A stretch of 47,844 bases of DNA from Clostridia bacterium (lineage in GTDB: Bacteria > Bacillota > Clostridia > CAKSNL01 > HGM11501). The stretch covers positions 1 to 47,844 of the forward strand of contig JAFPCL010000007.1 of assembly GCA_017390225.1 (NCBI GenBank). The letters run 5' to 3'. The position numbers and the translations under genes are program-made. This document shows positions 480 to 43,053 of the stretch, one piece after another. Numbering within the stretch: the stretch's first letter is position 1; each line of letters opens with the position of its first letter. The notes beneath the pieces were generated by a model. That model searched no databases and was not told the DNA's origin. It was given only the letters and a program-made list of their open reading frames with translations.

Positions 480-2030
480 TTAGGATTCGCTTTCAGGTAA
501 GGTATAAATTGAAATAATAACGTAATTTTTTTCCATGCGCAGACAAACGAGAAGCGATTTATCCCCGTTCGTCTGCCAGAAGGAGTCGGAGGATATGGGA
601 GTAAATCCGACGGAAAGAAGCATTTCACTGTATTCGGCAATCAAGGTTTCTTGGTTGGCTTTGACCATATAGGTATAATCAAAAGACGGGCCTTGGGTGG
701 TCGTGCCGCCGTTGACGCCACAGTTGATGCCGAAATCCGGTACCTTGGGGTGTGTAGTATAGAATGTCAATTCTTTGTTGGCATACTTGTTGTATACTTC
801 AAGTGGCGTAATGGCAATCTGGAAGTAGGAAGCACCATCCAAAATTGTAGAGAGCTGTACAGAATGGGTATTTGATTCATAGATGCCCGGTCTGCCAATC
901 TTTTCGCTAAATGCACATTTGTAGAGAAGTTCAACATAAATAGAAACCATTTCCTCGGTGAACTCTGCGGAGGGATAACGGTAATAGAGACCATTAGGAT
1001 CCTCTATGACGGAAGAGAACGTCCACACGGAGGAAGGATCCGGAACAGAAATTTGGCTTTCAAAGCAGTAAAAGTCTGTAGGAATCGGATCGATATACAA
1101 GGCAGGGGAGGCAATCATAATGGCATTTTTCTCGCTGTCCCAAGCGGTTGTATATTCCAACTGGGAAATTACGCTAATCGGCATATAGACCGTGCCGTCC
1201 AAGCGGAGAACAGGAATTTCTGTTTTACTGGCAATGCCGGTGTTTTCAAGAGTATTGCTGCCCGGTGTAAGTGTCAGGAAAATAGAATCTTTTTGCACGG
1301 AGATTTTGTCCGTTTCGCTATCACATGTGACAGTAGCTCCCAAAAGCTCCATCATCTCTCGCAAAGGAACCATGGTGCGGCTGTTGATGACCTTGGCAGG
1401 AGATGAAAACGTAATCGGTGCATTATCAAGATAAAAGCCGGCAGAAGAATCATAAACCGTAACAAGATCCAAGTAATCGGGCGTTTGGTTTTGCTTTTCA
1501 TAGTAGGCATTCATTTCAAAAAAATTGGATGTACTATAAAGCCGTTCTTCTTCGGTATAGGTGAACTCGGGACGTGGAACTGTCCATCCGGTGCTATCCC
1601 AATCGGGGGTGGCGATAATCACGGAGCGATATTCAGCGTGCCAATCGACCGTACATTCCAGACTTTCTGAAACGGCACGCAAGGGAATCAAAGTGCGGCT
1701 GTTAACGATGCAGGGAGCGACGTCTAATGTATGCGGAATAAAGTTGACCGTATAGGTGTGGCTGTCCACAGTGAACACAACCGTGCGAGAGGAAGAAACG
1801 CCGGTGGCAGAGCGCGTCTGATCGTCCCAGGAGACGGTGGCGCCCAGCTTTTCAAAAATACCGCGCAAAGGCACCATGGTGCGCCCGTCCATAATGCAAG
1901 GCTCCACATCAAATGTCAAACGGTTTCCGTTTAAATAGACCAGAATATCATCTGCATCTGCGGCGCCGGCCGTATAGATCATACCGAAAAACAGACAGCA
2001 TAGGGATAATATAAGAAATATTTTTTTCAT
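480..2030 (-). CDS. Secreted protein with repeated copper-amine-oxidase N-terminal-like (stalk) domains and an uncharacterised C-terminal half
   Basis: N-terminal signal peptide MKKIFLILSLCCLFFGMIYTAGA. There are three copies of the 'DG(R/T)xMVPLR.....LGA.V.W' motif typical of Cu_amine_oxidN1 domains. Confidence 0.7.
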   Translation of the reverse strand: MKKIFLILSLCCLFFGMIYTAGAADADDILVYLNGNRLTFDVEPCIMDGRTMVPLRGIFEKLGATVSWDDQTRSATGVSSSRTVVFTVDSHTYTVNFIPHTLDVAPCIVNSRTLIPLRAVSESLECTVDWHAEYRSVIIATPDWDSTGWTVPRPEFTYTEEERLYSTSNFFEMNAYYEKQNQTPDYLDLVTVYDSSAGFYLDNAPITFSSPAKVINSRTMVPLREMMELLGATVTCDSETDKISVQKDSIFLTLTPGSNTLENTGIASKTEIPVLRLDGTVYMPISVISQLEYTTAWDSEKNAIMIASPALYIDPIPTDFYCFESQISVPDPSSVWTFSSVIEDPNGLYYRYPSAEFTEEMVSIYVELLYKCAFSEKIGRPGIYESNTHSVQLSTILDGASYFQIAITPLEVYNKYANKELTFYTTHPKVPDFGINCGVNGGTTTQGPSFDYTYMVKANQETLIAEYSEMLLSVGFTPISSDSFWQTNGDKSLLVCLRMEKNYVIISIYTLPESES

Positions 2031-6114: not shown

Positions 6115-6888
6115 TTACATATATTTTCGAAGGCGGAGTAGTGCTGCCTTTTCCATGCGGGAAACTTGCGCTTGCGAAATGCCGATATCGCGGGAAACCT
6201 CCATTTGTGTCCGTCCGTTGAAAAATCGAAGAGTCAGAACCTTTTTTTCCCGTTCCGAAAGGTGCGCCATCGCTTCTTTTACGGCTAAATTCTCCACCCA
6301 CATATCCACCGTGTCACGAGAATCACCCAGCTGATCCATAATATACAAAGCATCGCCGTTTTCATGATAAATCGGTTCATATAAAGACACAGGCTCTGTG
6401 ATAGCTTCCAAAGCACGGGTGATTTCTTCGGGGGTGACCTCCAAAAGCACGGCAAGCTCTTCGACCTTGGGTTCTCTTTGCTTTTCCGACAGAAGCTGTT
6501 CTCGCAGTTGCAGGGTTTTATAAGCAAGATCACGCATGGAGCGGCTGACACGAATCATATTGTTGTCACGAAGATAACGGCGAATCTCGCCGATAATCAT
6601 GGGAACGGCGTAGGTTGAAAACCGCACGTTCAGGCTTGTGTCGAAATTATCAATGGCTTTCATAAGCCCCACACAGCCAATCTGAAACAAATCGTCAATA
6701 TTTTCGTTGCGATTGGCAAAGCGCTGGATCACCGAAAGCACCAGACGCAGATTCCCTAAAATGAGCGCTTCTCTGGCACTTTTGTCACCACTGTCAAGAC
6801 GTGCAAACAGTGCTTCTTTTTCCGCTTCGGACAAAACCTTCAGCTTTGCCGTATTCACGCCGCAAATTTCCACCTTGTTTTTGATCAT
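6115..6888 (-). CDS. sigG: Forespore RNA polymerase sigma factor SigG
   Basis: 'NKVEICGV.T.KL.VL', 'GNLRLVLSVIQRF.NR', 'FSTYAVPMIIGEIRRYLRDNN.IRVSRS' are near-identical to B. subtilis SigG. Start at MIKNK (GAAGGGGG SD 7 nt upstream) rather than the track start at 6906. Confidence 0.9.
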   Translation of the reverse strand: MIKNKVEICGVNTAKLKVLSEAEKEALFARLDSGDKSAREALILGNLRLVLSVIQRFANRNENIDDLFQIGCVGLMKAIDNFDTSLNVRFSTYAVPMIIGEIRRYLRDNNMIRVSRSMRDLAYKTLQLREQLLSEKQREPKVEELAVLLEVTPEEITRALEAITEPVSLYEPIYHENGDALYIMDQLGDSRDTVDMWVENLAVKEAMAHLSEREKKVLTLRFFNGRTQMEVSRDIGISQAQVSRMEKAALLRLRKYM

Positions 6889-6920
6889 AAAAAAAGCCCC
6901 CTTCAAAGTCCTTACATTTT

Positions 6921-6977: not shown

Positions 6978-7700
6978 TTATGCTAACATGACACAAAGAA
7001 GTGCATGGGCAAAAAGCTCGTGCATTTTTGCTGTGGGATGGTTGATGTAATTCGCCAGAAGCTCCGTGGTGTCGATGCCCTTTTCATCCATGGATTTCCA
7101 CAGGGCATACACATCGGCAACGGGAATATCGTATTCCTTTGCGGCATCGCGCATGGCATCCATATAAGCATCCATGGTGCCGTCCTTTTGCCTTGCGGCA
7201 CAGGCGGCGGCAATATCTGTCATTACACCGGGCATCAGATGTGGGCTGACATAGGTGTTCATCATGTTGGGTGTCATGGCGATGACTTCACTTCCGGCGG
7301 CTTTGAGCTTTGCAAAAATTTCCCTAAGGGCATTTTTGTAGGTGTCGATGCCGGCTAACCCATGTCCGTTGTCATTGAGCCCGAAGCAAACCACGGTCAG
7401 ATCGGGGTGGTATGCCAAAATGTCCCGATCGATACGGGCAAGGCCGCCGGGAGCACTGTCGCCGCTGATGCCGGCATTGATAATATGAACGGCGGCAGGC
7501 GGACAAAGCTCTGCGAGCTGTCTTCGAAGCACGGCACTGTAGGCATCTTCTCTTTTAAAGACGGTTTCAATCTGTCCGGGGGCTTTTTCGTAGATTTCAA
7601 AACAACCTTGGGTGACACTGTCGCCTAAAAAGGCGATGGTGACGGGGGCGGCGCCGCGAAGGTCGCTTCCTTTTTGCGCGATTTTTTCAAAAATTTTCAT
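6978..7700 (-). CDS. SGNH/GDSL-family hydrolase (esterase/acylhydrolase)
   Basis: 'IAFLGDSVTQG' (block I, GDS), 'INAGISGDS' (block II), 'VVCFGLNDN' (block III). The start ATG overlaps the upstream stop (TAATG). Confidence 0.85.
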   Translation of the reverse strand: MKIFEKIAQKGSDLRGAAPVTIAFLGDSVTQGCFEIYEKAPGQIETVFKREDAYSAVLRRQLAELCPPAAVHIINAGISGDSAPGGLARIDRDILAYHPDLTVVCFGLNDNGHGLAGIDTYKNALREIFAKLKAAGSEVIAMTPNMMNTYVSPHLMPGVMTDIAAACAARQKDGTMDAYMDAMRDAAKEYDIPVADVYALWKSMDEKGIDTTELLANYINHPTAKMHELFAHALLCVMLA

Positions 7701-8542
7701 TACAAATTCACCTCATATATCAATTTTCGAAGGGTTTGAACTGACGCCGTATCGGGGCGACAGGCAAGGGAGAAAAAAGGAATGTTTTGAGAAAGATCGG
7801 AAAAGATGTTCAATGCTTTTTCTGCCAACAGAGGATGAAAAAGAGGAAGCTCCGCTTGTTCCATCATGGCGGCTATATCTTTTTCCGAGGCACGAGAAGC
7901 CAAATTTTGGGGCGCTTTTTTAAGAAGCGTTACGGCGGCAATCGGAGCACGTTCATTCAAGAAAACAAAAGAAGAACCGGCAACAGGCAAGCCGTAAGCT
8001 AAATATATGCCGTCTTTTTTTCTGATTAAAATACGGTCGCCGTTGAGAAGACGGGCGCCTGTGGTTTCTTGCCATAATGCGGCATGGGTGGATTTTCCGC
8101 CGCCGGAAGGGGCAGTGAAAATATAGGCTTTTTCATCGTGCACCACGGTGGCGGCATGGAAAAACAATCCCTCATGGGGAAGAAATGCGATGCCGAAGGG
8201 AATGAAATTTAAAGCAGCACCAAAAGACAGGGGACTATCCTTTGCCAAAGTGATGGATGCGGAATAAAAATCTTCGGAAATACGGGTACGGCAAAGCTCT
8301 CGGCCGTCGGGCAGAAAGTGGCAGAATACAAGAGAATTGTTATGTATCCACACATGACGACCGGGCGTTTGAAACAGCAGTGTGCCTTTCTGCGGCGCAA
8401 GGCTTTCTTTGGAAACCGTGACCGAAAAATTCGGCGAAGCCACCGCATCGCAGACAAAGGGAATAAAGTTTTCCGGAAGCGACAGAGACGCTTCCGAATG
8501 AACGGAAAAGAAAATATCGCCGATACAAAGTGTGGTCTGCAT
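7700..8542 (-). CDS. HPr-kinase-C-like P-loop protein (ScmC-like / RiPP-associated kinase-like)
   Basis: 'FFHAATVVHDEKAYIFTAPSGGGKSTHAALW' resembles the 'HA.AV...G.A.L..G.SG.GKST.A' core of HprK-related proteins found next to PqqD/rSAM genes. TAATG overlap with the rSAM gene. Confidence 0.55.
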   Translation of the reverse strand: MQTTLCIGDIFFSVHSEASLSLPENFIPFVCDAVASPNFSVTVSKESLAPQKGTLLFQTPGRHVWIHNNSLVFCHFLPDGRELCRTRISEDFYSASITLAKDSPLSFGAALNFIPFGIAFLPHEGLFFHAATVVHDEKAYIFTAPSGGGKSTHAALWQETTGARLLNGDRILIRKKDGIYLAYGLPVAGSSFVFLNERAPIAAVTLLKKAPQNLASRASEKDIAAMMEQAELPLFHPLLAEKALNIFSDLSQNIPFFSLACRPDTASVQTLRKLIYEVNL

Positions 8543-9624
8543 TAAGCCTCTTCCTCCTTTGGATGCATGGCATCATACAAACATTCACCCCAAGCGCAGT
8601 GATAGGCGGAAGGCTCGTCTAAATGTCGGTTTTCCGCTTGAATAGCACCAAGACATGCCGTGCAATAAGCAGACTTTTTGCAAGCTCTGCAATCGGGCGG
8701 AGCGGTGATTTTGTTTGCGGCATTTTTGATTGCATCCCATGCGGCGGAAAATCCGCAAAGAAGCGGCTCCGCATAAGGGCGGTCGAATAAAAGACAGGGA
8801 CGCATACGTCCTTCCCATGTGATGACATAAGAAGTTTTGCCTGCCGTACAGGAAAATGCTTCGCCGGCACAGGCATCTTTATCTTCGGCAATATGCCGCA
8901 GTGTTTCGGGGGACAAGTCGCGGTTGACATGTGCTCGCAAGGCAAGAAGCTCTTTCGGCGCAAGGCGAACACTTGCAACGTCGCTTTTTGCACCGCGGAC
9001 AGCGGCAGACAAAACGGAACAGTAGACAAAGTCCGCACCTTTTTCCGTCGCCATGGCACACAGAGCATCAAAATCCGACACGTTGAGCTTTGAAATCGTC
9101 GTGCGAATCTGCACGGGAATCGATAAAGACAGGAAAAAATCAAGCCCTTGCATGGCTTTTTCATAAGCCTCTTTTTGTCCAGTGACCCGCTCATAGGTTT
9201 CGGGGGATGCGCCGTAAATACTGATGCCTACAGCAGACGGCGGAATACGGCGAAACAGTGCTTGAAGGGCGGGGGTGACCAAGGTGGCATTGGTATACAG
9301 CTTAATCAGAAAGCCCATTCTTGACAATCCTTCGTATATCTCGGGGAAATCGGGGCGGAGCATGGCTTCGCCGCCGGTAAGCAATAAAAACAGTGTGCCG
9401 CTTTTTTGTGCCGCTTCGCCCAACGCCAACCAATCATTACAGGACAAGGGGCGGGAAATGGCGGCGGCTTCTTCTTTGGACAGGCGCATATAGCACATTT
9501 TGCATCCGAGATTGCAAAATGGCGTCAGTTCAAACGTACCGAACAGAGGAACCCCCTGATCGAGTGCGGCGGCAGACAGCTTGTCTTTGAGCGCCGCCCA
9601 ATCATCATAAAATGCGGCTCTCAT
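8542..9624 (-). CDS. Radical SAM enzyme with C-terminal SPASM (auxiliary 4Fe-4S) domain, peptide-maturase type
   Basis: CX3CX2C 'CNLGCKMC' at the N-terminus and a 'LLLTGGE' SAM-binding motif. C-terminal 'FSCTAGKTSYVITWEGRMRPC' plus 'CRACKKSAYCTAC' give a SPASM-type Cys pattern. Confidence 0.9.
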   Translation of the reverse strand: MRAAFYDDWAALKDKLSAAALDQGVPLFGTFELTPFCNLGCKMCYMRLSKEEAAAISRPLSCNDWLALGEAAQKSGTLFLLLTGGEAMLRPDFPEIYEGLSRMGFLIKLYTNATLVTPALQALFRRIPPSAVGISIYGASPETYERVTGQKEAYEKAMQGLDFFLSLSIPVQIRTTISKLNVSDFDALCAMATEKGADFVYCSVLSAAVRGAKSDVASVRLAPKELLALRAHVNRDLSPETLRHIAEDKDACAGEAFSCTAGKTSYVITWEGRMRPCLLFDRPYAEPLLCGFSAAWDAIKNAANKITAPPDCRACKKSAYCTACLGAIQAENRHLDEPSAYHCAWGECLYDAMHPKEEEA

Positions 9625-9890
9625 GCATCCACCAAAAGGCCGCCTTCGCGCATAGCATTTAAAAATGCGGCAACGTCTTGTTCGGCAAGAGATTGTTCAA
9701 CATCATATTCTTCTAAAAGAGCGGCAACCAAGCTTTCCTGTGTTTGCTGTGTTGTCAATAGCTTCCATAGAAAAGCCCCTGTTTCATTCAGTGTAATCAT
9801 GCCGCTGAAGTTCTGAAGTTCTTCGCCGCAGGGAATGACCATATAAGAGCCTGCAATCTCTCGCAAAATATAATTATCTTTAATCTTCAT
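9621..9890 (-). CDS. PqqD-family protein (RiPP recognition element / peptide chaperone)
   Basis: 'ITLNETGAFLWKLL....T.E.LV..L..EYDV....A..DV..FL..M...GLL' matches the PqqD pattern. ATG 9890 has GGAG 7 nt upstream; an alternative GTG at 9896 overlaps the SDR stop. The stop overlaps the rSAM start (ATGA). Confidence 0.8.
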   Translation of the reverse strand: MKIKDNYILREIAGSYMVIPCGEELQNFSGMITLNETGAFLWKLLTTQQTQESLVAALLEEYDVEQSLAEQDVAAFLNAMREGGLLVDA

Positions 9891-9892
9891 GT

Positions 9893-10729
9893 TCACACTC
9901 CGGAATAAGCAGAGAATCCGCCGTCAACAGGAACAACAACGCCATTGACAAAGCCGGAAACCTCGTTGTCGGCAAGCCACAAAAGTGTGCCGTTTAATTC
10001 CTCGGGCGCACCGAACCGTCCCATGGGCGTCTGGGAAAGAATTTTTTCGGCACGGGCAGACCAAGAGCCGTCCTCTTGAAGAAGAAGACCGCGATTCTGA
10101 TTGGTCAGGAAAAAGCCGGGGGCAATGGCGTTTACACGGATGCCGACCTTGCAAAAATGAACGGCAAGCCATTGGGTCAGATTGGATACGGCGGCTTTGG
10201 CACCGCTGTAGGCAGGGATTCTCGTCAAGGGGGTGAAGGCGTTCATGGAAGACACGTTAATTACGGTAGCGCCTTCTTTATCGACCATGGAGGCGGCAAA
10301 GACCTGTGTGGTCAGAAGTGCACCTAAAAAGTTCAGATTAAAAACAAAAGAGATGCCGTCCTGATCCAGATCAAAGAAGGTTTTCACGCTTTCTTCCGCT
10401 TGCGTCAGATCTTCGGGATACAAATAGTCCTTGGTCGTGGTACCTTTGGGGTGATTGCCGCCGGCACCGTTGATGAGAATGTCGCAAGTGCCGAAGGCTT
10501 TTTCTACGGCTTCTTTGGCGTTTATCAGGCTGGCTTTATCCAGCACATTGACAGTGACGCCGATGGCATCGCCCCCTCGGGCGCGGATTTCTTCGGCGAC
10601 CGATTCTGCCGCCGCGGCGTTCAAGTCCAAAAGAGCAACGCGCACGCCTTTTTCTGCCAAGGCAAGGGCAAAGGCGCGGCAGAGAACACCACCACCACCG
10701 GTGATAACAGCTACTTTATTTTTCAACAT
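9893..10729 (-). CDS. SDR-family NAD(P)-dependent oxidoreductase
   Basis: 'VAVITGGGGVLC' Rossmann motif, 'NGAG', catalytic 'YSGAKAAV', C-terminal 'VPVDGG'. Confidence 0.9.
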   Translation of the reverse strand: MLKNKVAVITGGGGVLCRAFALALAEKGVRVALLDLNAAAAESVAEEIRARGGDAIGVTVNVLDKASLINAKEAVEKAFGTCDILINGAGGNHPKGTTTKDYLYPEDLTQAEESVKTFFDLDQDGISFVFNLNFLGALLTTQVFAASMVDKEGATVINVSSMNAFTPLTRIPAYSGAKAAVSNLTQWLAVHFCKVGIRVNAIAPGFFLTNQNRGLLLQEDGSWSARAEKILSQTPMGRFGAPEELNGTLLWLADNEVSGFVNGVVVPVDGGFSAYSGV

Positions 10730-31441: not shown

Positions 31442-31552
31442 ATCATATGGGACAACTGTTGAGCGATGTCATCCGGAAGAATTTTTTCCGTGAATTGTGT
31501 TGGCTTTCTCAAGAGAATGTCCCCTTTTGCTTTTTTTAAGAAGGAGATTAAA

Positions 31553-32959
31553 ATGAAAAAAACTTTTTTTCTTTGTTTGATTGCCGTGCTTCTTCTTTGT
31601 TCCTGCACAAAACAAACGGAGGAAACGGCAGGGAAATCGCCCCATTCTGCACAAGTCCAAACAGAACCTTTTCGCAAAAGCTGGGAGCTGAAAGACCTTC
31701 CTTTTGTGATTACGCCTGCAGGAGAAGCTACGGCGCTTGCGCAGACGCAGGATAAAAATCACTTTGGGGAGTATGTAGATTACAAAGGAAGCTTTTATTT
31801 CAGACAGTATAAAAAGAAAGATTATGAAGAAACGGCAATCCACCAAAATCACGGCTATGTCGATGGCAGAAAGCGCAACATGATGTGCTACACCGACAAA
31901 GGAAAACTGAAAACATTGTTTTCCGATGAGGGCGTGGGAAGCTTTTATATTTTTGAAGACCGATTTTTTGCCATGACAAGAACAGACACACAGGGAGAAA
32001 TCTACTCTGTTGATATGAAGGGCGAAAATCGACATGTGTTGGAAAAGGGCTGTATTCTGGCGGCAGATGAAAAGAAGGGCTTTTTGATTTGCAAAAACGA
32101 AGATTTGGGGCTTTTCTCCGTCAATTTAAATGCCGTGAATTGGGCGATTACGCCTCTTACGTTGAATGGGTCTTTCCTTGCGATAAAAGACGGACTGGTA
32201 TATTATCAGGAAAGTCCGGAAGGGGAAGAGGCTTATCTCGGGAAAGTGTATTTAAAACGCATCTCCACCGACGGCATCGGAGATATGGTTTTGGCAGAAA
32301 CAAAGCCTGATTTATACGATGATGTGTCGGCGGCAGGAAAAACGATGATTCGTCAATTCCGCATGACACCATACAATATTTATTTTTCCTATGGAAGTGT
32401 CGGCGGCTCGGCGGCAATGTATCAAGGGGGCGGCATTATGTGTGTCCCCGCAGACGGCATCGGCGTGAGACGGCTAACAACAGCACTTGTGGACGAGCAC
32501 TTCTTTGTGGAAGAGACGGGCTTTGCAGATTATCTGTATTTTTATTCCTTTGCAGACGATGTGTATTCCCAAAAAAATCTCACAACGGAGGAAATCACCG
32601 CAACGGAGATTGTGGCAGGGCCTGTCAATCAAGTGTTTATGCGCGAAAAAGAACTGCTTTTTCTGAATGCAGATACGGGAAAGACGGAAGTTGTATTTTC
32701 AAAAGAGGATTTGGATGCACTGGAGCTGACAGAGGATTTGATGCTGAAAGCTTTAACGGACACGCCGTCTTCCGACAGCTATATTTATGACTTTAAAAAC
32801 ACGGTGTTTTCCGAGCAATATGTTTTCACGGAGCTGTACCGATATGTCCCCGCACCGGAAGAAGATATCGGCTGGCGTGCGGCGTATCGACTGATCAGTC
32901 GTGCCGTGTTGGTGAAAGACCGTACCACGGGTGAAATCAAAGTATTGGATATTTTTTAA
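31553..32959 (+). CDS. Lipoprotein with DUF5050-like repeat region
   Basis: Start at MKKTFFLCLIAVLLLCSC (lipobox L-C-S-C) with AAGGAG SD. It contains 'GLVYYQE', 'VYLKRISTDG' and 'NIYFSYG' blade-like motifs. The track N-terminal extension from 31466 is rejected. Confidence 0.65.
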   Translation: MKKTFFLCLIAVLLLCSCTKQTEETAGKSPHSAQVQTEPFRKSWELKDLPFVITPAGEATALAQTQDKNHFGEYVDYKGSFYFRQYKKKDYEETAIHQNHGYVDGRKRNMMCYTDKGKLKTLFSDEGVGSFYIFEDRFFAMTRTDTQGEIYSVDMKGENRHVLEKGCILAADEKKGFLICKNEDLGLFSVNLNAVNWAITPLTLNGSFLAIKDGLVYYQESPEGEEAYLGKVYLKRISTDGIGDMVLAETKPDLYDDVSAAGKTMIRQFRMTPYNIYFSYGSVGGSAAMYQGGGIMCVPADGIGVRRLTTALVDEHFFVEETGFADYLYFYSFADDVYSQKNLTTEEITATEIVAGPVNQVFMREKELLFLNADTGKTEVVFSKEDLDALELTEDLMLKALTDTPSSDSYIYDFKNTVFSEQYVFTELYRYVPAPEEDIGWRAAYRLISRAVLVKDRTTGEIKVLDIF

Positions 32960-32979: not shown

Positions 32980-33828
32980 ATGTATAATTTTCCGATTGGT
33001 GTTATGTTAGAATCTTTCCGCTTGCCTTTGCGCGAAGCTGTGGAAAAAGCGGCATCTTTAGGGGTACAGGGCTTGCAGGTCTATGCCTCTCGTGGGGAAA
33101 TCACTCCGGAAATGACCAAGGACAAAAAAGCTGAATTTATTTCTCTTTTGGATGCCAATGGGCTCAAGCTTTCCGCTTTGTGCGGCGATTTCGGTCATGG
33201 CTTCGGAGATAAAGAAAAAAATAAAGACCTGATCGAAGCATCTAAGAAAGTTTTGTATCTTGCCAAAGAATTGGGAACCAATATCGTCACCACCCATATC
33301 GGTGTTGTGCCGGAAGACCCCTCGCATCCTCGTTATCAGATTATGCAGGAGGCATGCTTTACCTTGGCAGAATTTGCCGACAGCCAGGATGCACATTTTG
33401 CCATTGAAACAGGTCCTGAAAAGGCAAGTGTTCTCAAGGGCTTTTTAGACGGACTTCATTCCAAGGGCGTGGCAGTCAATTTAGACCCTGCCAACCTTGC
33501 CATGGTGGTAGGGGATGATGCCGTGGAAGCCGTTCACACGTTAAAGGACTACATCGTGCATACCCATGCCAAAGACGGAAAAATGCTGGCACAAAAGAAG
33601 CCGGAATACATTTACGGCGTCGAAGCAGACCCGCATCCCGAAATTGCATCCTTCCTGGAAGTGCCGCTGGGTGAAGGCAGTGTGAATTTCCCCACATATC
33701 TTGCCGCCTTGCAGGAAGTCGGTTATCGCGGATTCTTAACAATTGAAAGAGAAGTTGGCGAAAATCCCGCAGGCGATATCGGCATGGCCGTGGATTTCTT
33801 AAAGGGCATTATCGGAGGAAATGAATGA
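32980..33828 (+). CDS. Sugar phosphate isomerase/epimerase (xylose-isomerase-like TIM barrel)
   Basis: The 'FAIETG', 'V.LDPANL' and 'HTHAKDG' motif series is typical of the AP-endonuclease-2/xylose-isomerase-like barrel family. Confidence 0.8.
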   Translation: MYNFPIGVMLESFRLPLREAVEKAASLGVQGLQVYASRGEITPEMTKDKKAEFISLLDANGLKLSALCGDFGHGFGDKEKNKDLIEASKKVLYLAKELGTNIVTTHIGVVPEDPSHPRYQIMQEACFTLAEFADSQDAHFAIETGPEKASVLKGFLDGLHSKGVAVNLDPANLAMVVGDDAVEAVHTLKDYIVHTHAKDGKMLAQKKPEYIYGVEADPHPEIASFLEVPLGEGSVNFPTYLAALQEVGYRGFLTIEREVGENPAGDIGMAVDFLKGIIGGNE

Positions 33829-34397
33829 AAATCATCGCGGCAACCAACAATAAAGGAAAACTGAAAGAAATGCGTGCCATTTTCGGCGATTTGGCGACAG
33901 TGGTTTCGCTTTCGGATATGGGCGTGAATATCGATGTGGTAGAAGACGGCGATACGTTTCTTCATAATGCACGAAAAAAAGCCCGTGAGATTCAGGCGGT
34001 TACCGGTGGCATTGTCTTTGCTGACGACAGCGGACTCACGGTAGATGCCTTAAATGGTGCGCCCGGGGTGTATTCGGCACGCTTTGCCGGAGAAAACGCC
34101 ACCGATGAAGAAAACGTGGAGAAGCTTCTTTTACAGCTTAAAGACAAAGAAGATCGCACGGGACATTTCGTCTGCACCATCGTGCTTTTGAAAGAAGACG
34201 GCACGGAGTATGTGGCGGAAGGGGCATGTAGTGGCGTGATTGCAGAGGAGCCGCATGGAGAAAACGGCTTCGGCTATGATCCTGTCTTTTATATTCCTGA
34301 ACTTGGAAAAACCATGGCAGAGCTTTCGCCGGAGGAAAAAAATCAAATCAGCCACCGCCGTAAGGCTTTGGATAAAATCAAAGAATTCTTAAAATAA
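33825..34397 (+). CDS. rdgB: Non-canonical purine NTP pyrophosphatase (Ham1/RdgB)
   Basis: 'ATNNKGKLKE', 'DDSGL.VDALNG.PGVYSARFAG', 'GFGYDPVF', 'K..ISHR..AL'. Confidence 0.9.
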   Translation: MKIIAATNNKGKLKEMRAIFGDLATVVSLSDMGVNIDVVEDGDTFLHNARKKAREIQAVTGGIVFADDSGLTVDALNGAPGVYSARFAGENATDEENVEKLLLQLKDKEDRTGHFVCTIVLLKEDGTEYVAEGACSGVIAEEPHGENGFGYDPVFYIPELGKTMAELSPEEKNQISHRRKALDKIKEFLK

Positions 34398-34400
34398 AAT

Positions 34401-34431
34401 ATGTCGGGGCAGCGATTCGCTGTCCCGACAT
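34401..34431. terminator. Hairpin terminator shared by convergent rdgB and the small Cys-rich gene
   Basis: ATGTCGGGGCAGC / GCTGTCCCGACAT form a 13-bp stem (one G-U on the plus-strand RNA) with a 5-nt loop. On the minus-strand RNA it is followed by AUUUUAUUUU. Confidence 0.55.
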
Positions 34432-34465
34432 ACAGGCTTTATATGACCGATATAAGGGTTTACTT

Positions 34466-34612
34466 TTAGCAACCGCAGTTGTTGCAACCGCAATTGTTGC
34501 TATAACCGCAGTTGTTGTTTGTCAACAGAAGAACGATGATGATGGCGAGAATAACCCAGATGAAGCAGTTGCAGTCAAACAGGCTATTGTTGTTATTGCA
34601 GCAATCAGACAT
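34466..34612 (-). CDS. Unlisted 48-aa Cys/Asn-rich single-TM peptide: MSDCCNNNNSLFDCNCFIWVILAIIIVLLLTNNNCGYSNNCGCNNCGC
   Basis: Hand translation of the minus strand: ATG at 34612 and TAA at 34468-34466. GGAGG SD lies 11 nt upstream, and a terminator hairpin lies 35 nt downstream. It occupies an otherwise empty 332-nt gap. Architecture (short Cys-rich flank, hydrophobic core, Cys-rich tail) resembles tiny YjcZ-type sporulation proteins. Confidence 0.6.
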   Translation of the reverse strand: MSDCCNNNNSLFDCNCFIWVILAIIIVLLLTNNNCGYSNNCGCNNCGC

Positions 34613-34669
34613 AGCTTTTAGAACCTCCTTTTTATTGATGCTGTAGGCGGTGTTTGCCGCTTACAGTGA

Positions 34670-34700
34670 TATACTATGACAGAAGGTTCTTTTGTGTGAC
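34670..34700 (-). promoter_or_regulatory. Sigma-K-like (mother-cell) promoter motif upstream of the small Cys-rich gene
   Basis: Minus strand reads GTCACA-N16-CATAGTATA. The sigma-K consensus recalled from B. subtilis is AC-N16/17-CATANNNTA. Confidence 0.35.
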
Positions 34701-34729
34701 TGTGCTTTAAAAAAGAAAGGACAGTAGGT

Positions 34730-35860
34730 ATGAAGCTGTTGATTTTGTCCGTCACGGCAGGGCATGGGCACAATAAAACCTCTCAGGCACTTTTATCTGC
34801 ATGGGAAGCGCTGGGGCATGAAGGCGTGATTTTAGACACCTATGAATTTTTAGAGCCCATCGTAGGAAAAAGTGTGGATAAGGGCTATTTGATGAGCACA
34901 AAATATACACCGAAGCTGTATGGTGCCGTCTACTCTTTTTTAGATAAGCAGGATTTGGATACACTCGAGAATGTTCCGTCGTTTTCATCCAAGGAAATGC
35001 GGGAAAAAATCGAAGAGTATATTGCTTCCTATGCACCCGACGCCATTGTGTGTCCCCATGTGTTCACGGCAGAAATCATGTCAAAAATTAAAGATTCCAT
35101 CGGAAACATTCCCGTGTGGGGGATTATTACGGATTATACCATCCATCCTTTTTGGCAAACCTGCCAGCTGGACGGGTACGTGATTCCGAATGAGCTTTTA
35201 AAAGCAGAGTGCCAAAGAAAAGGGATGCCCATGCGGAAAATTTATCCCACAGGGATTCCCGTGTCTCCGACTTTTAAAAAGAAAATAGCGGCATCGGAAG
35301 CCAAAGCACAGCTATCCCTTGATCCCGAAAAAAGAACGGTCATGCTGATGACCGGAAGTATGGGGTTTGGAAATATCGGAAAAATTGTAGAAAGGCTCGA
35401 TCAGCTTTCGTCGGATTTTCAAATGCTGATTATTACGGGAAACAACAAACGTGCCTACCGCTCTTTATCCAAGAAAGAGTGGAAGCATTCTATGCATATC
35501 TACGGCTTTGTGGACAACGTGAATGTTATGATGGACGCATCGGATGTTTTGGTTACAAAGCCCGGCGGGCTGTCCGTGTCGGAAAGCTTGGTCAAGGGGC
35601 TTCCCATGATTTTGATTAACCCTATTCCGGGGCAGGAAAAACGCAATATGGAGTTTTTGGTTAACTGCGGCGTGGGCATGGCAACCTCCAAAACCTGTGC
35701 CGTGGAGGACTGCGTATATATGTATATGGAAAACGAGTGGCTGCGTGATCGGATGAAGGCATCGGTGGGATATATCCGAAAGCCCGATGCGGCAGAGAAT
35801 CTCGCAGAAATATTGATCGACAGAATAAGGAGGAAAAATATTGGAGAAGATAACGATTAA
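34730..35860 (+). CDS. MGDG-synthase-family / GT28 diacylglycerol glycosyltransferase (UgtP-like)
   Basis: 'LILSVTAGHGHNKTSQAL' N-terminus and C-terminal 'VLVTKPGGLSVSESL..GLPMI..NPIPGQE..N'. Confidence 0.8.
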   Translation: MKLLILSVTAGHGHNKTSQALLSAWEALGHEGVILDTYEFLEPIVGKSVDKGYLMSTKYTPKLYGAVYSFLDKQDLDTLENVPSFSSKEMREKIEEYIASYAPDAIVCPHVFTAEIMSKIKDSIGNIPVWGIITDYTIHPFWQTCQLDGYVIPNELLKAECQRKGMPMRKIYPTGIPVSPTFKKKIAASEAKAQLSLDPEKRTVMLMTGSMGFGNIGKIVERLDQLSSDFQMLIITGNNKRAYRSLSKKEWKHSMHIYGFVDNVNVMMDASDVLVTKPGGLSVSESLVKGLPMILINPIPGQEKRNMEFLVNCGVGMATSKTCAVEDCVYMYMENEWLRDRMKASVGYIRKPDAAENLAEILIDRIRRKNIGEDND

Positions 35861-40734: not shown

Positions 40735-40900
40735 CGGATGGACTACCGTGCTTTTAATATTATGGGTCATTGCCGTGGTGGCAGCCGTAGCGGCGGCAAT
40801 TTTTGTATGGCAAAAGGAAGACCGTAAAAAAAGAGTGCTTTTCTGCATAGCGGCGGCTGTAATCTACGCTGTCCCCGGTCTTCTGTTTTTGATGATATGA
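40724..40900 (+). CDS. Small two-TM membrane peptide (58 aa)
   Basis: MLVNGWTTVLLILWVIAVVAAVAAAIFVW...VLFCIAAAVIYAVPGLLFLMI. It overlaps both neighbours (by 11 nt and 4 nt). Coding status was not verified. Confidence 0.4.
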   Translation: MLVNGWTTVLLILWVIAVVAAVAAAIFVWQKEDRKKRVLFCIAAAVIYAVPGLLFLMI

Positions 40901-42297
40901 TGAAAGAAACATATATCAATCCAATCCCCGTGCCGGAAGAGATTTTGCGAAAAGAATCTTTTGGAGATATGGTTGCCGACGGCGTTGTGGGCAAGCGGTG
41001 CCTGACGGCAAAACGGCTGTTCGGGCTCACGGCGCAGAGCTTTCTTTCTGATACCGCAGGGCTTTGCCCGAAAGAGGATGCACGCCTTGGCTTTTCGGCG
41101 CAAAGCCCAAGATATGCAAACGTATATGACCATGTGCGGGAAACGGAAGCTCGATTGTGGGGATTTTTGAAGGACGGTAAACGAGTAGAGAGCCTTCTGC
41201 TTTGGGACAAAGACGAAGCATTGGCATCGCTTTTAACCGAGCTGAACCGTGGGTTTATGAAAAAAAAGACGGTCACGGGAAGCGAAGCTGTTATCATCAG
41301 TGCCTGTATGTCGGTTTCCGAGAAGGACTATGATAAGCTGTGGAAGTTTTTAAAATATGGCGGCACAATCTTGTTTTTGGATTGCATCCCGAAGGACAAG
41401 CGGCTTTTGTCGGTGCTTTTTTCCAAAAAGCAAGAAGAAAAGGCATTGCTTTCGGACACCTATCTGAAAAAAGAAACCTTCGATGGCGGCAGTCTTTATG
41501 TTTTAAAAACGGAAAAACACACAAGACACGTGCTCAAAGCCGCACTGGACGATGCTTTGAGGGGCAATGTGTGGATTGAAGACACCGAGCCCGTTTCTTG
41601 CCGTGTCAGATATTTGCATAAAAAAGCAAACGGAAAAAACATATACCTGTTTTATAATGACGACGAGGAGCGGCTGGCTTCGCAATATGTCCGCTTGCCC
41701 TACAGCACGAGAATCGTTGCCGTGCATCCCCAAAGCGGCGGCACATGGCTTCCGGAACAGCAACGCTACGAATCGGAAACCTGGTTCAAGCTGTGGCTAC
41801 AGCCGGAAGAGTGCCTTTTATACATAGAAGAGGGCGAGGAATTTCCTCTTTTGTATGCAGAAGACTATCCGAAAAAAGCAAGCTGGGAAAATCTTTCGGG
41901 AGAAGCTCGCATCAGCGGCTACGGGGCGATGCCTCGGTTCTTCTTTTCGCAAGGAGAAAAAGCCGTGCTTGTAAACAGCCGCACATGGGAGAACTACCAA
42001 ATGGCGGTAACGGTATCCAAAGGGAGCGGAAAGCTTTGTTTTGGCTTCGGAGAAGGGGTCCTTACAATCTCTGAAAAAGAGCTTTGCTATACCTTGGGAG
42101 AAGAAAAGATTTGTGTGTCGTTCTCTTTTGAAACACCGGCAAAACGGCTGTATATCTCCATAGAACAAAAAGATTTTTCCGTCAGCGCAGACGGAGAAAT
42201 GTGGATTAAGGGAAAAGCTCCCGAGGGAAGAGAATTTTCTGTTTTCAGTCAAGGGAATTTCTCGGTCAATTCGCTGTATGCGATAAAAATCAAATAA
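40897..42297 (+). CDS. Hypothetical 466-aa protein, no confident family
   Basis: Long ORF in the operon frame with an ATGA-type overlap to the upstream small ORF. No recognisable catalytic motifs. Confidence 0.55.
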   Translation: MMKETYINPIPVPEEILRKESFGDMVADGVVGKRCLTAKRLFGLTAQSFLSDTAGLCPKEDARLGFSAQSPRYANVYDHVRETEARLWGFLKDGKRVESLLLWDKDEALASLLTELNRGFMKKKTVTGSEAVIISACMSVSEKDYDKLWKFLKYGGTILFLDCIPKDKRLLSVLFSKKQEEKALLSDTYLKKETFDGGSLYVLKTEKHTRHVLKAALDDALRGNVWIEDTEPVSCRVRYLHKKANGKNIYLFYNDDEERLASQYVRLPYSTRIVAVHPQSGGTWLPEQQRYESETWFKLWLQPEECLLYIEEGEEFPLLYAEDYPKKASWENLSGEARISGYGAMPRFFFSQGEKAVLVNSRTWENYQMAVTVSKGSGKLCFGFGEGVLTISEKELCYTLGEEKICVSFSFETPAKRLYISIEQKDFSVSADGEMWIKGKAPEGREFSVFSQGNFSVNSLYAIKIK

Positions 42298-42310: not shown

Positions 42311-42337
42311 ACACATAAGCTGTCGGCTCATATAATA
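42311..42337 (+). promoter_or_regulatory. Mother-cell-type (sigma-K/E-like) promoter motif upstream of sigK
   Basis: AC-N16-CATATAATA matches AC-N16/17-CATANNNTA. It lies 24 nt upstream of the sigK ATG. Confidence 0.3.
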
Positions 42338-42360: not shown

Positions 42361-43053
42361 ATGTTTTTTATTTTGGAATGGTTGTCGGGCATTTGGTTTC
42401 TGGTTTCGCATATCTCCTGCGGACGGTTTCAGAAGCCGATGACGCCCGAGGAGGAGCGGGTATACGTAGAAAAATGCAGGGCAGGAGACCAAGAAGCACG
42501 GGATCTTCTGATTGAAAGAAATCTGCGTCTGGTTGCCCATGTCGTTAAAAAATATGCAGGCACGGGCGAGGATCAGGACGATTTAATCTCCGTGGGCACC
42601 ATCGGGCTGATTAAAGCCATCAATACGTTCGATCCGGAAAAAAGCAATAAGCTTTCCACCTATGCGGCACGGTGTATCGAAAACGAGATTTTAATGCTGT
42701 TTCGCAGTGACAAAAAAAGAGCCGGCGACGTGTCCTTGCAGGAAATGATTGGGCAGGACAAAGAGGGCAACGAGGTTTCGCTTTTAGATATTCTGCCGTC
42801 GGAGGATGAAGATATATCGGAAGCCTATGAAAATAAAACCGATGCTTTAAATCTGCGCCTTGCGGTGGAAAAGGTTTTAAAGGGCAGAGAAAAAAAGGTC
42901 GTGGAGCTTCGCTACGGACTCTTAACCGGCAGAGAGCTTCCCCAACGGGAGGTCGCAAAAGTGCTCGGCATCTCCCGAAGCTATGTGTCCCGCATTGAAA
43001 AAAAGGCACTGGAGAAGCTCAAGGAGGCATTGGAAGCCGCGGGAGAATTTTAA
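42361..43053 (+). CDS. sigK: Mother-cell RNA polymerase sigma factor, pro-SigK (uninterrupted)
   Basis: 'NLRLVAHVVKKY..TGEDQDDLISVGTIGLIK', 'STYAARCIENEILM', 'DVSLQEMIGQDKEGNEVSLLDIL', 'GISRSYVSRIEKKAL' are close to B. subtilis SigK. A hydrophobic N-terminal pro-sequence 'FFILEWLSGIWFLVSHI' is present. Confidence 0.9.
   Translation: MFFILEWLSGIWFLVSHISCGRFQKPMTPEEERVYVEKCRAGDQEARDLLIERNLRLVAHVVKKYAGTGEDQDDLISVGTIGLIKAINTFDPEKSNKLSTYAARCIENEILMLFRSDKKRAGDVSLQEMIGQDKEGNEVSLLDILPSEDEDISEAYENKTDALNLRLAVEKVLKGREKKVVELRYGLLTGRELPQREVAKVLGISRSYVSRIEKKALEKLKEALEAAGEF

Follow-up and report, generated by a model that had tools for sequence, protein, structure and literature searches.

The question raised by this stretch of Clostridia DNA (contig JAFPCL010000007.1; 47,844 nucleotides (nt) in full, hereafter the window) is whether a gap of 332 nt (34398–34729) holds a gene of its own and, if so, when that gene would be expressed and what its product would do. 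The gap is bounded on one side by an rdgB-type nucleoside triphosphate (NTP) pyrophosphatase gene (33825–34397, plus strand; NCBIfam) and on the other by a GT28 gene resembling monogalactosyldiacylglycerol (MGDG) synthase/UgtP (34730–35860, plus strand), and it contains a minus-strand open reading frame (ORF) of 48 codons. Our reading, to which we give a probability of about 0.6, is that this ORF encodes a mother-cell membrane peptide, predicted to be driven by sigma-K and transcribed as a monocistronic unit, of an undescribed family of tiny peptides. The features of the locus are as follows.

34466–34612, minus strand: coding sequence of the 48-amino-acid (aa) peptide, stop codon included (read directly, supported by comparison with contig L007 and by the family profile hidden Markov model, HMM)
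34517–34570, minus strand: hydrophobic core, predicted single transmembrane helix, residues 15–32, NCFIWVILAIIIVLLLTN (AlphaFold2)
34471–34484, 34486–34499 and 34504–34517, minus strand: three direct 14-nt repeats coding for the NNCG(C/Y) tail units (93–100% identity)
34695–34700, minus strand: −35 element GTCACA, with the AC core typical of sigma-K (read directly; conserved in the family)
34670–34678, minus strand: −10 element CATAGTATA of the mother-cell sigma type, CATAnnnTA (read directly; conserved in the family)
34641–34666, minus strand: 5'-terminal stem-loop of the predicted transcript, CUGUAAGCGG...CCGCCUACAG (fold −11.7 kcal/mol, z = −5.2)
34624–34628, minus strand: Shine–Dalgarno sequence GGAGG, 11 nt before the ATG (read directly)
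34386–34432, minus strand: intrinsic terminator that overlaps the stop codon of rdgB, a convergent gene; hairpin at 34400–34432, then AUUUUAUUUU (fold)

The 48-codon gene and its conservation

The peptide encoded by 34466–34612 (MSDCCNNNNSLFDCNCFIWVILAIIIVLLLTNNNCGYSNNCGCNNCGC) contains nine Cys and 12 Asn, and is devoid of Lys, Arg and Glu; the initial annotation had the Cys number right, but counted 13 Asn. The other elements it had described, namely, the ORF itself, the GGAGG sequence, the hairpin with its U-tract, the triple repeat and GTCACA-N16-CATAGTATA, are all present. Cys-richness by itself is unremarkable, given that four of the 677 small ORFs of the window contain at least 18% Cys; the other three are out of frame or antisense within larger listed ORFs, the majority with matches to known protein families.

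The small gene is uncalled in all seven related contigs of the window's lineage (L001–L007). In six metagenome contigs of the window's species, the gap is 99% identical, with a single synonymous change in the ORF and a constant number of repeats. L007 represents a sister lineage, with a GT28 protein 95% identical to that of the window, and it retains the 48-codon frame, the position of the stop codon (TAA changed to TGA) and all nine Cys. The two ORFs differ by 12 substitutions, eight of them synonymous and four conservative (S10G, I18V, Y37F and S38N), which corresponds to a ratio of nonsynonymous to synonymous rates (dN/dS) of 0.09 and a synonymous excess with a binomial P of 3.5e-4. Nucleotide divergence between the two lineages amounts to 8.8% in the ORF, compared with 9.2% in rdgB and 7.9% in the GT28 gene, and the changes in the antisense frames, the open one included, are non-conservative. 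The conservation of frame and Cys positions with synonymous-biased variation, which the initial annotation expected of a real gene, is thus borne out in L007, and the 48-codon ORF is, as judged by this comparison, a genuine gene under purifying selection.

Searches with the single peptide failed to recover any relatives. There was no match among the Pfam, NCBIfam and PHROG models (Pfam and NCBIfam to E = 10), and a word-indexed search of 5.8 billion proteins and a full phmmer search of 1.84 billion representatives each returned only the query itself. An exact-sequence contig look-up with the 48-aa peptide yielded no match, and nor did scans of genome contigs with either the GT28 neighbour or a two-peptide alignment as the query. 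We attribute the outcome of the single-peptide searches to the under-calling of small ORFs and to the severity of E-values for a query of 48 residues.

A family of tiny Cys/Gly/Asn-rich peptides

Relatives were found by synteny first and then with a profile. Beyond L007, the nearest relatives of the GT28 protein are only about 45–50% identical, and downstream of rdgB in these relatives there are one or two tandem minus-strand small ORFs of similar build. The syntenic peptides are MFCNNGNSSWWIIILILLLFSSNSWGNARCDSCSNNCC and MFGNNCGCIWIIVIILILCSCGNNCGGNDCGCGNQNNCCC in L008 and L009, MFCTNNNNGSWIIIILIIILLSGSGTYGGCN and MFGSNNNCGCLWIIVLILIFCCCGTGNGTGCGTGSNNTNDCNCGCIC in L010 and L011, and MNIFRNMDSGVWIIILIVLFFLCCDNGCGNSSSDCGC and MCCNNLCNIIKSDCFWIIVILLFLWGGCSDNGCGCGR in L013–L017, which come from one abundant human-gut species; the rdgB–GT28 position is common to four lineages. 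A profile of ten syntenic peptides recovered 63 additional called proteins of 31–84 aa, none with a functional name; three of these are labelled 'hypothetical protein [Oscillospiraceae bacterium]', and no other name was obtained from any source. One further confirmed locus (L023) was added by a metagenome scan. With a local HMM, the window coding sequence scored 36 bits and is the only copy of the family in the window, whereas members in general scored at least 22.9 bits, compared with at most 7.9 bits for 6,273 background ORFs from the window and the fetched loci. We examined 11 family loci from 10 lineages, with genomic backgrounds of 33–65% G+C.

No Pfam domain was found among the family proteins; the weak matches to ODV-E18, Doppel and TatA (E = 0.02–0.2) were dismissed as hydrophobic-segment noise. 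A PDB search for relatives gave no match at E up to 10, and a full-text literature search for characteristic strings, together with the supplements of a human-microbiome small-protein catalogue (bioRxiv 10.1101/494179), was likewise negative, which is weak evidence of novelty. The family was seen in ruminant-associated and human-gut metagenomes and so far spans only Clostridia sequences and unclassified metagenome contigs. By these searches, the peptide is a member of a previously undescribed family of tiny Cys/Gly/Asn-rich peptides in Oscillospiraceae-like Clostridia.

The members are about 31–56 aa long and conform to the consensus MFC(G)NNN..(C/L)WIIILIIILF(G)CGNGCGC(G/D)NNCGC...GC, with an N-terminus of the form MFC-NN or MC-NN. 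Cys (21%), Gly (19%), Asn (18%), Ile (11.5%) and Leu (8%) dominate the composition, whereas Lys, Arg, His and Glu together account for about 1% and Asp for about 2%; there are only 3 Lys and 12 Arg in 2,374 residues. The sole invariant column across 44 aligned members is W19, at the start of the core, and at least 90% of members have a CGC near the C-terminus. Among the 65 members with a single core, the strict hydrophobic run comprises 8–14 residues (11 on average) and the tails 7–61 residues. With the family alignment as input, AlphaFold2 predicts for the window peptide a single helix at residues 15–32 (predicted local distance difference test, pLDDT, about 82), both tails being disordered. 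The member closest to the window peptide is P0179 (MCDCCNNNYSGLNTILWVLIIILIISSCNGNCGCNNCGCNNCGCN). Seven others (P0126, P0127, P0131, P0155, P0170, P0175 and P0182) possess two hydrophobic cores separated by a Cys/Gly/Asn linker and are apparently fusions of tandem pairs like those in L008, L010 and L013.

The number of Cys per member averages nine and ranges from 0 to 16, with variable spacing. Such a composition raises the alternative of a membrane-anchored, metallothionein-like peptide that would buffer metals or redox state, its CxC/CGC motifs binding Zn, Cu or Fe, or scavenging oxidants, for the spore of a strict anaerobe. C-G-C and CC motifs are indeed repeated on both sides of the helix, the C-terminal CGC is the most conserved feature of the tail, and the restriction of the family, so far, to Clostridia and unclassified contigs, with the three named members being Oscillospiraceae, would suit such a role. 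However, there is no Pfam metallothionein match even at E up to 10, and a Cys pattern that is fixed neither in number nor in spacing is more in keeping with a low-complexity tail for cross-linking than with a defined metal cluster. We consider metal or redox buffering unlikely.

The tail is built of repeats. In the window, the three copies of the unit AACCGCARTTGTTG, starting at 34471, 34486 and 34504, are spaced by 15 and 18 nt and are, therefore, in frame with each other. Throughout the family, the tail is modular, with (N/G)NCGC units in variable number and 0–5 CGC motifs, whereas no difference in repeat number separates the eight sequences of the window's own lineage. The proposal that the tail expands and contracts is thus supported for the family, in which one within-species, in-frame change in hexanucleotide copy number was also recorded, but not shown for the window locus. 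In the second family gene of L013–L017 (about 1552–1671, minus strand), L015 carries (GGCTGC)3 and encodes a peptide ending in ...GCGCGCGR, and L013, L014, L016 and L017 carry (GGCTGC)2 and end in ...GCGCGR.

A sigma-K-type promoter and a stand-alone transcription unit

The window promoter (34700–34670) fits the pattern expected for sigma-K, a −35 AC and a −10 CATAnnnT(A) some 16–17 nt apart. The combination of −35 AC with −10 CATA...T is the sigma-K signature in both Bacillus subtilis and Clostridioides difficile (PMC517825, PMC3789822); the −10 CATA...T is shared by the two mother-cell sigma factors, with the −35 element being AC for sigma-K and ATA for sigma-E (PMC3789822). Upstream of the family genes, we identified GT(A/C)AC(A/C)-N15/16-CATA(G/A/T/C)TAT(A/G) in 10 of the 11 loci, with unrelated spacers and with the end of the motif lying 33–145 nt before the ATG, whereas chance occurrences of this refined motif were limited to 0 to 0.1% of shuffled 220-nt upstream regions. 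The a priori B. subtilis pattern AC-N16/17-CATAnnnTA had already picked the window site; it is found three times in the window, versus 1.2 expected, with one occurrence at sigK and one at the small gene. Furthermore, the two substitutions that distinguish the window promoter from that of L007 both fall in the spacer, leaving the boxes unchanged. The sigma-K-like promoter is, in the loci compared, the most conserved non-coding feature of the family, and the suggestion of such a promoter in the initial annotation gains support at the sequence level from the ten loci and from the intact boxes in L007. A sigma-K-type motif, ACA-N15-CATACTATG, is also retained by the two-core gene of L025 (3001–3243). 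The locus that carries no motif, L024, has its gene 75 nt after dapH, preceded by a long inverted repeat, CCATGGAAT...ATTCCATGG (L024 2926–3000).

The gene could be real and yet the motif a weak sigma-A promoter, in which case the product would be a small membrane protein of vegetative cells, with no connection to sporulation. The boxes GTAACA/GTCACA and TAGTAT/TATTAT/TAATAT resemble TTGACA and TATAAT at 4–5 of 6 positions each, with a spacing of 17–18 nt; moreover, L024 is without the motif, and the gene contexts are mostly housekeeping ones. Against this, CA immediately 5' of TA...T is invariant in all ten motifs and the TTG of a sigma-A −35 element is never present, a pattern characteristic of mother-cell sigma factors (PMC3789822). 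A scan of the gap for promoters, which covers the sigma-70 type only, detected no site, a similar pattern precedes sigK itself, and spoIIR and ypeB flank the gene of the closest homologue. A vegetative sigma-A gene appears improbable on balance.

Immediately after the −10 box, a stem-loop is present in eight of the nine loci tested, with unrelated sequences and z-scores of −2 to −6, and in the window an A/G polymorphism at 34652 makes the stem longer. Since mRNA decay in Firmicutes depends on the 5' end, this stem-loop is probably an mRNA stabilizer. A Shine–Dalgarno sequence of the GGAGG/GGAG type also precedes the first or only family gene at the other loci, 5–13 nt before the ATG. At the 3' end of the window gene, the hairpin and the U-tract stand as first described, but the stem consists of 15 pairs with one A·C mismatch rather than 13 bp (−26 kcal/mol, z = −5.2 relative to shuffled sequences); in L007, the mismatch is replaced by an A–U pair. 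A terminator scan with simple loop and stem rules reported no site, the rules being such that a 15-bp hairpin is missed. A hairpin with a U-tract ends every unit that can be read to its end (L008, L010, L019, L022, L023, L024 and L025). The tandem pairs are probably operons, given that the second gene begins 19 nt after the first in L013–L017 and that the hairpin preceding it in L008 and L010 has no U-tract. The window gene, by contrast with these pairs, is a predicted stand-alone monocistronic unit, composed of a sigma-K-type promoter, a 5' stem-loop, a Shine–Dalgarno sequence, 48 codons and a terminator.

Two other candidate features of the gap were rejected. A riboswitch or other regulatory RNA was discarded because Rfam produced only sub-threshold chance matches (best E = 0.15). 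A helix that would sequester the Shine–Dalgarno sequence, formed by 34681–34690 and 34620–34629 on the minus strand (AGAACCUUCU and AGGAGGUUCU; z = −3.7), is probably due to chance, given that the promoter spacer, which precedes the predicted transcription start, contains its 5' arm and that both of its ends have been eroded in L007 with no compensatory changes. Only about 30 nt separate the start codon of the GT28 gene from the family −35 box on the other strand, and the gap yielded no sigma-70-type promoter for the GT28 gene. Transcription of the latter may, therefore, begin further upstream or continue from rdgB, with its RNA running antisense to the small gene.

The combination of very small size, a single helix, extreme hydrophobicity and a promoter of the late mother-cell type in a stand-alone gene without partner genes is also what might be expected of a holin- or type I toxin-like peptide, which would permeabilize the mother-cell membrane late in sporulation and thereby aid lysis and spore release. 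Tandem duplicates and two-core fusions, as present here, are common for membrane-active peptides. The known type I toxins and holins, however, have charged ends, usually rich in Lys and Arg, whereas these two residues make up less than 1% of the family and are absent from the window peptide. Type I toxins are further recognized by a cis-antisense RNA, and we saw no antisense RNA or antitoxin feature, with nothing significant in Rfam; nor does the Cys/Gly/Asn repeat tail have an obvious pore-forming role. A lytic function, too, is unlikely in our judgement.

Genomic context and the proposed place of the family in sporulation

The window itself encodes two sporulation sigma factors. The sigK gene (42361–43053, plus strand; 230 aa) scores 307 bits with TIGR02846, above the cut-off of 298.65, and is uninterrupted by a skin-like element; sigG (6115–6906, minus strand; 263 aa) scores 421 bits with NF006071, the cut-off of which is 372. 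Their presence implies that the sporulation sigma cascade is at least partly in place in this organism, which is likely an endospore former. Upstream of sigK lies AC-N17-CATATAATA (42311–42337), with boxes matching those of the P2 promoter of C. difficile sigK (PMC3789822), which suggests autoregulation. Outside the four lineages with the rdgB–GT28 arrangement, family loci have diverse settings.

L018 (locus of P0179): between spoIIR and a coiled-coil gene, with ypeB adjoining
L019: between yceG and the gene for 5-formyl-tetrahydrofolate (5-formyl-THF) cyclo-ligase
L022: after a rotamase gene
L024: after dapH
L025: adjoining a phospholipase C gene

The flanks examined extend 2–10 kb on each side, except for L009, L018 and L023, for which only 0.03–2.1 kb are available on one side. 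Within them, we found no constant partner gene, and no radical S-adenosylmethionine (radical-SAM) enzyme, transporter or protease is recurrently adjacent.

The initial annotation had also raised the possibility, as its more speculative option, that the Cys-rich peptide is the substrate of thioether-forming radical-SAM/SPASM chemistry, to be matured by an orphan cassette in the same window. This peptide-maturase-like cassette (7700–9896, minus strand), for which no precursor peptide was identified, consists of three genes.

9621–9896, minus strand: PqqD-like ORF of 91 aa
8542–9624, minus strand: radical-SAM/SPASM enzyme, the best matches of which are far below every equivalog cut-off
7700–8542, minus strand: HprK-related-kinase-A-like protein

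The richness of the peptide in Cys and the presence of a maturase cassette in want of a precursor are the points in favour of this pairing. However, the cassette, although on the same strand, lies 25 kb from the small gene, with many unrelated genes in between, and the examined flanks of the 11 family loci from 10 lineages contain no radical-SAM, PqqD or transporter gene. Precursors of the SCIFF, ranthipeptide and sactipeptide types resemble the family in being about 45 aa long, Cys-rich and found in Clostridia, but SCIFF genes adjoin their radical-SAM maturase and their products have no hydrophobic core. The family, in turn, is not matched by the HMMs for SCIFF and other precursors (E up to 10) and displays no leader–core organization, the conserved part being the transmembrane-like core. 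A role as thioether precursor is accordingly unsupported and very improbable. Elsewhere in the window, two large ORFs have no Pfam or NCBIfam match (31466–32959, plus strand, 497 aa; 40897–42297, plus strand, 466 aa); the former is conserved in sister contigs, whose gene calls give it 468 aa.

The family can be compared with known small or Cys-rich sporulation proteins. The YjcZ proteins (TIGR01732, 'tiny_TM_bacill'), to which the initial annotation had likened the peptide, are very small and consist of a low-complexity flank, a hydrophobic core of about 15 residues and another low-complexity flank, a layout that is predicted for the window peptide as well (48 aa, helix at residues 15–32, disordered tails). 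The flanks of YjcZ are rich in Gly and Tyr, whereas those of the family are rich in Cys, Asn and Gly and contain CGC repeats, and the family core begins with an invariant Trp and continues as an Ile-rich run; the hosts are Bacillus and relatives in the former case and Oscillospiraceae-like Clostridia in the latter. In B. subtilis, yjcZ has been assigned to the sigma-K regulon (PMC517825). The TIGR01732 HMM (cut-off 21.35 bits) gave no match at E up to 10 for ten members, including the window peptide, nor for P0158, whereas two YjcZ-like sequences used as a positive control scored 51.9 and 46.7 bits in the same library. Alignment with hhalign of the 44-sequence family alignment to a YjcZ-like sequence, validated only by its TIGR01732 score, yielded a probability of 5.8% over 4 aligned columns. 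Given these results, membership in the YjcZ family was rejected, whereas the analogy in architecture stands: by this analogy, the family would be a functional analogue, rather than a detectable homologue, of the Bacillus YjcZ proteins and may represent a convergent or unrecognizably diverged second form of the same design.

Two further groups of proteins offer partial parallels. CotY/CotZ of B. subtilis, ExsY of Bacillus cereus and CdeC/CdeM of C. difficile share with the family a high Cys content and late mother-cell expression, which for the family is predicted from the promoter. Their Cys form disulfide-cross-linked spore layers, and the proteins are soluble, about 150–400 aa long and without a transmembrane helix. 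By contrast, the family peptides are 31–56 aa with a hydrophobic core, and no Pfam or NCBIfam similarity connects the two. SpoVM (26 aa) and CmpA (37 aa), on the other hand, are tiny peptides made in the mother cell that act on the surface of the forespore and readily escape annotation, but they depend on sigma-E, and SpoVM is amphipathic, whereas CmpA is not described as membrane-spanning (PMC10730256). Unlike the family, both are without a Cys-rich repeat tail, and there is no sequence similarity.

Taken together with the established role of sigma-K, the sigma-K-type promoter points to the late mother cell as the time and compartment of expression. In the mother cell, transcription of the gene by sigma-K RNA polymerase would take place late in sporulation, and the 5' hairpin would stabilize the short mRNA. 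The single helix would then insert the peptide into a membrane on the mother-cell side, the outer forespore membrane or the coat base being the most plausible sites, leaving the Cys/Gly/Asn-rich ends exposed on either side of the membrane. Speculatively, these Cys-rich ends might become cross-linked into the outer spore layers, by disulfides after lysis or exposure to air, or through metals. The peptide is probably a component of the spore envelope; the location in a membrane and the part played there by Cys cross-linking are what we infer for it.

Several observations weigh against this reading. The strict hydrophobic run is short (8–14 residues), so that spanning a membrane requires the flanking Cys, Gly and Phe to be counted. 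A core rich in Ile between flanks rich in Asn might instead be prone to beta-aggregation, and any role assigned to the Cys is conjectural. As to the promoter, its motif was refined on loci already in view, L024 is the only family locus without it, and the boxes admit a weak sigma-A reading: GTAACA shares 4 of its 6 positions with TTGACA, and TAGTAT or TATTAT shares 4–5 of 6 with TATAAT. The profile E-values are weak, the peptides being short and of low complexity, with six matches below 1e-3 in 5.8 billion sequences. Finally, the organism of the window is known only from metagenome contigs.

As a tentative extension, the family might be widespread though almost wholly unannotated, and its sigma-K-driven peptides might build, in the spores of Oscillospiraceae, a dedicated layer that lines the outer forespore membrane and can be cross-linked by oxidation or metals. 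Such a layer would harden in air and aid the aerotolerance and transmission of strictly anaerobic gut bacteria, with the tail length tuned by in-frame slippage, tandem duplication and fusion. We regard this scenario as rather doubtful.

Sporulation is central to the survival of gut Clostridia in oxygen and to their spread between hosts, but few components of their spore envelope are known; even C. difficile retains only a small number of the coat proteins of Bacillus (PMC3789822). The family adds to the parts list an entry that has no Pfam, NCBIfam or PDB counterpart and is mostly missed by gene callers, and its HMM could join annotation pipelines. As a second, sequence-unrelated form of the tiny transmembrane sporulation design, it argues that the architecture itself is functional. 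The promoter motif and the 5' hairpin provide a handle for predicting sigma-K regulons in uncultured Clostridia, and a clean, conserved promoter of the sigma-K type makes a late mother-cell function of these peptides directly testable.

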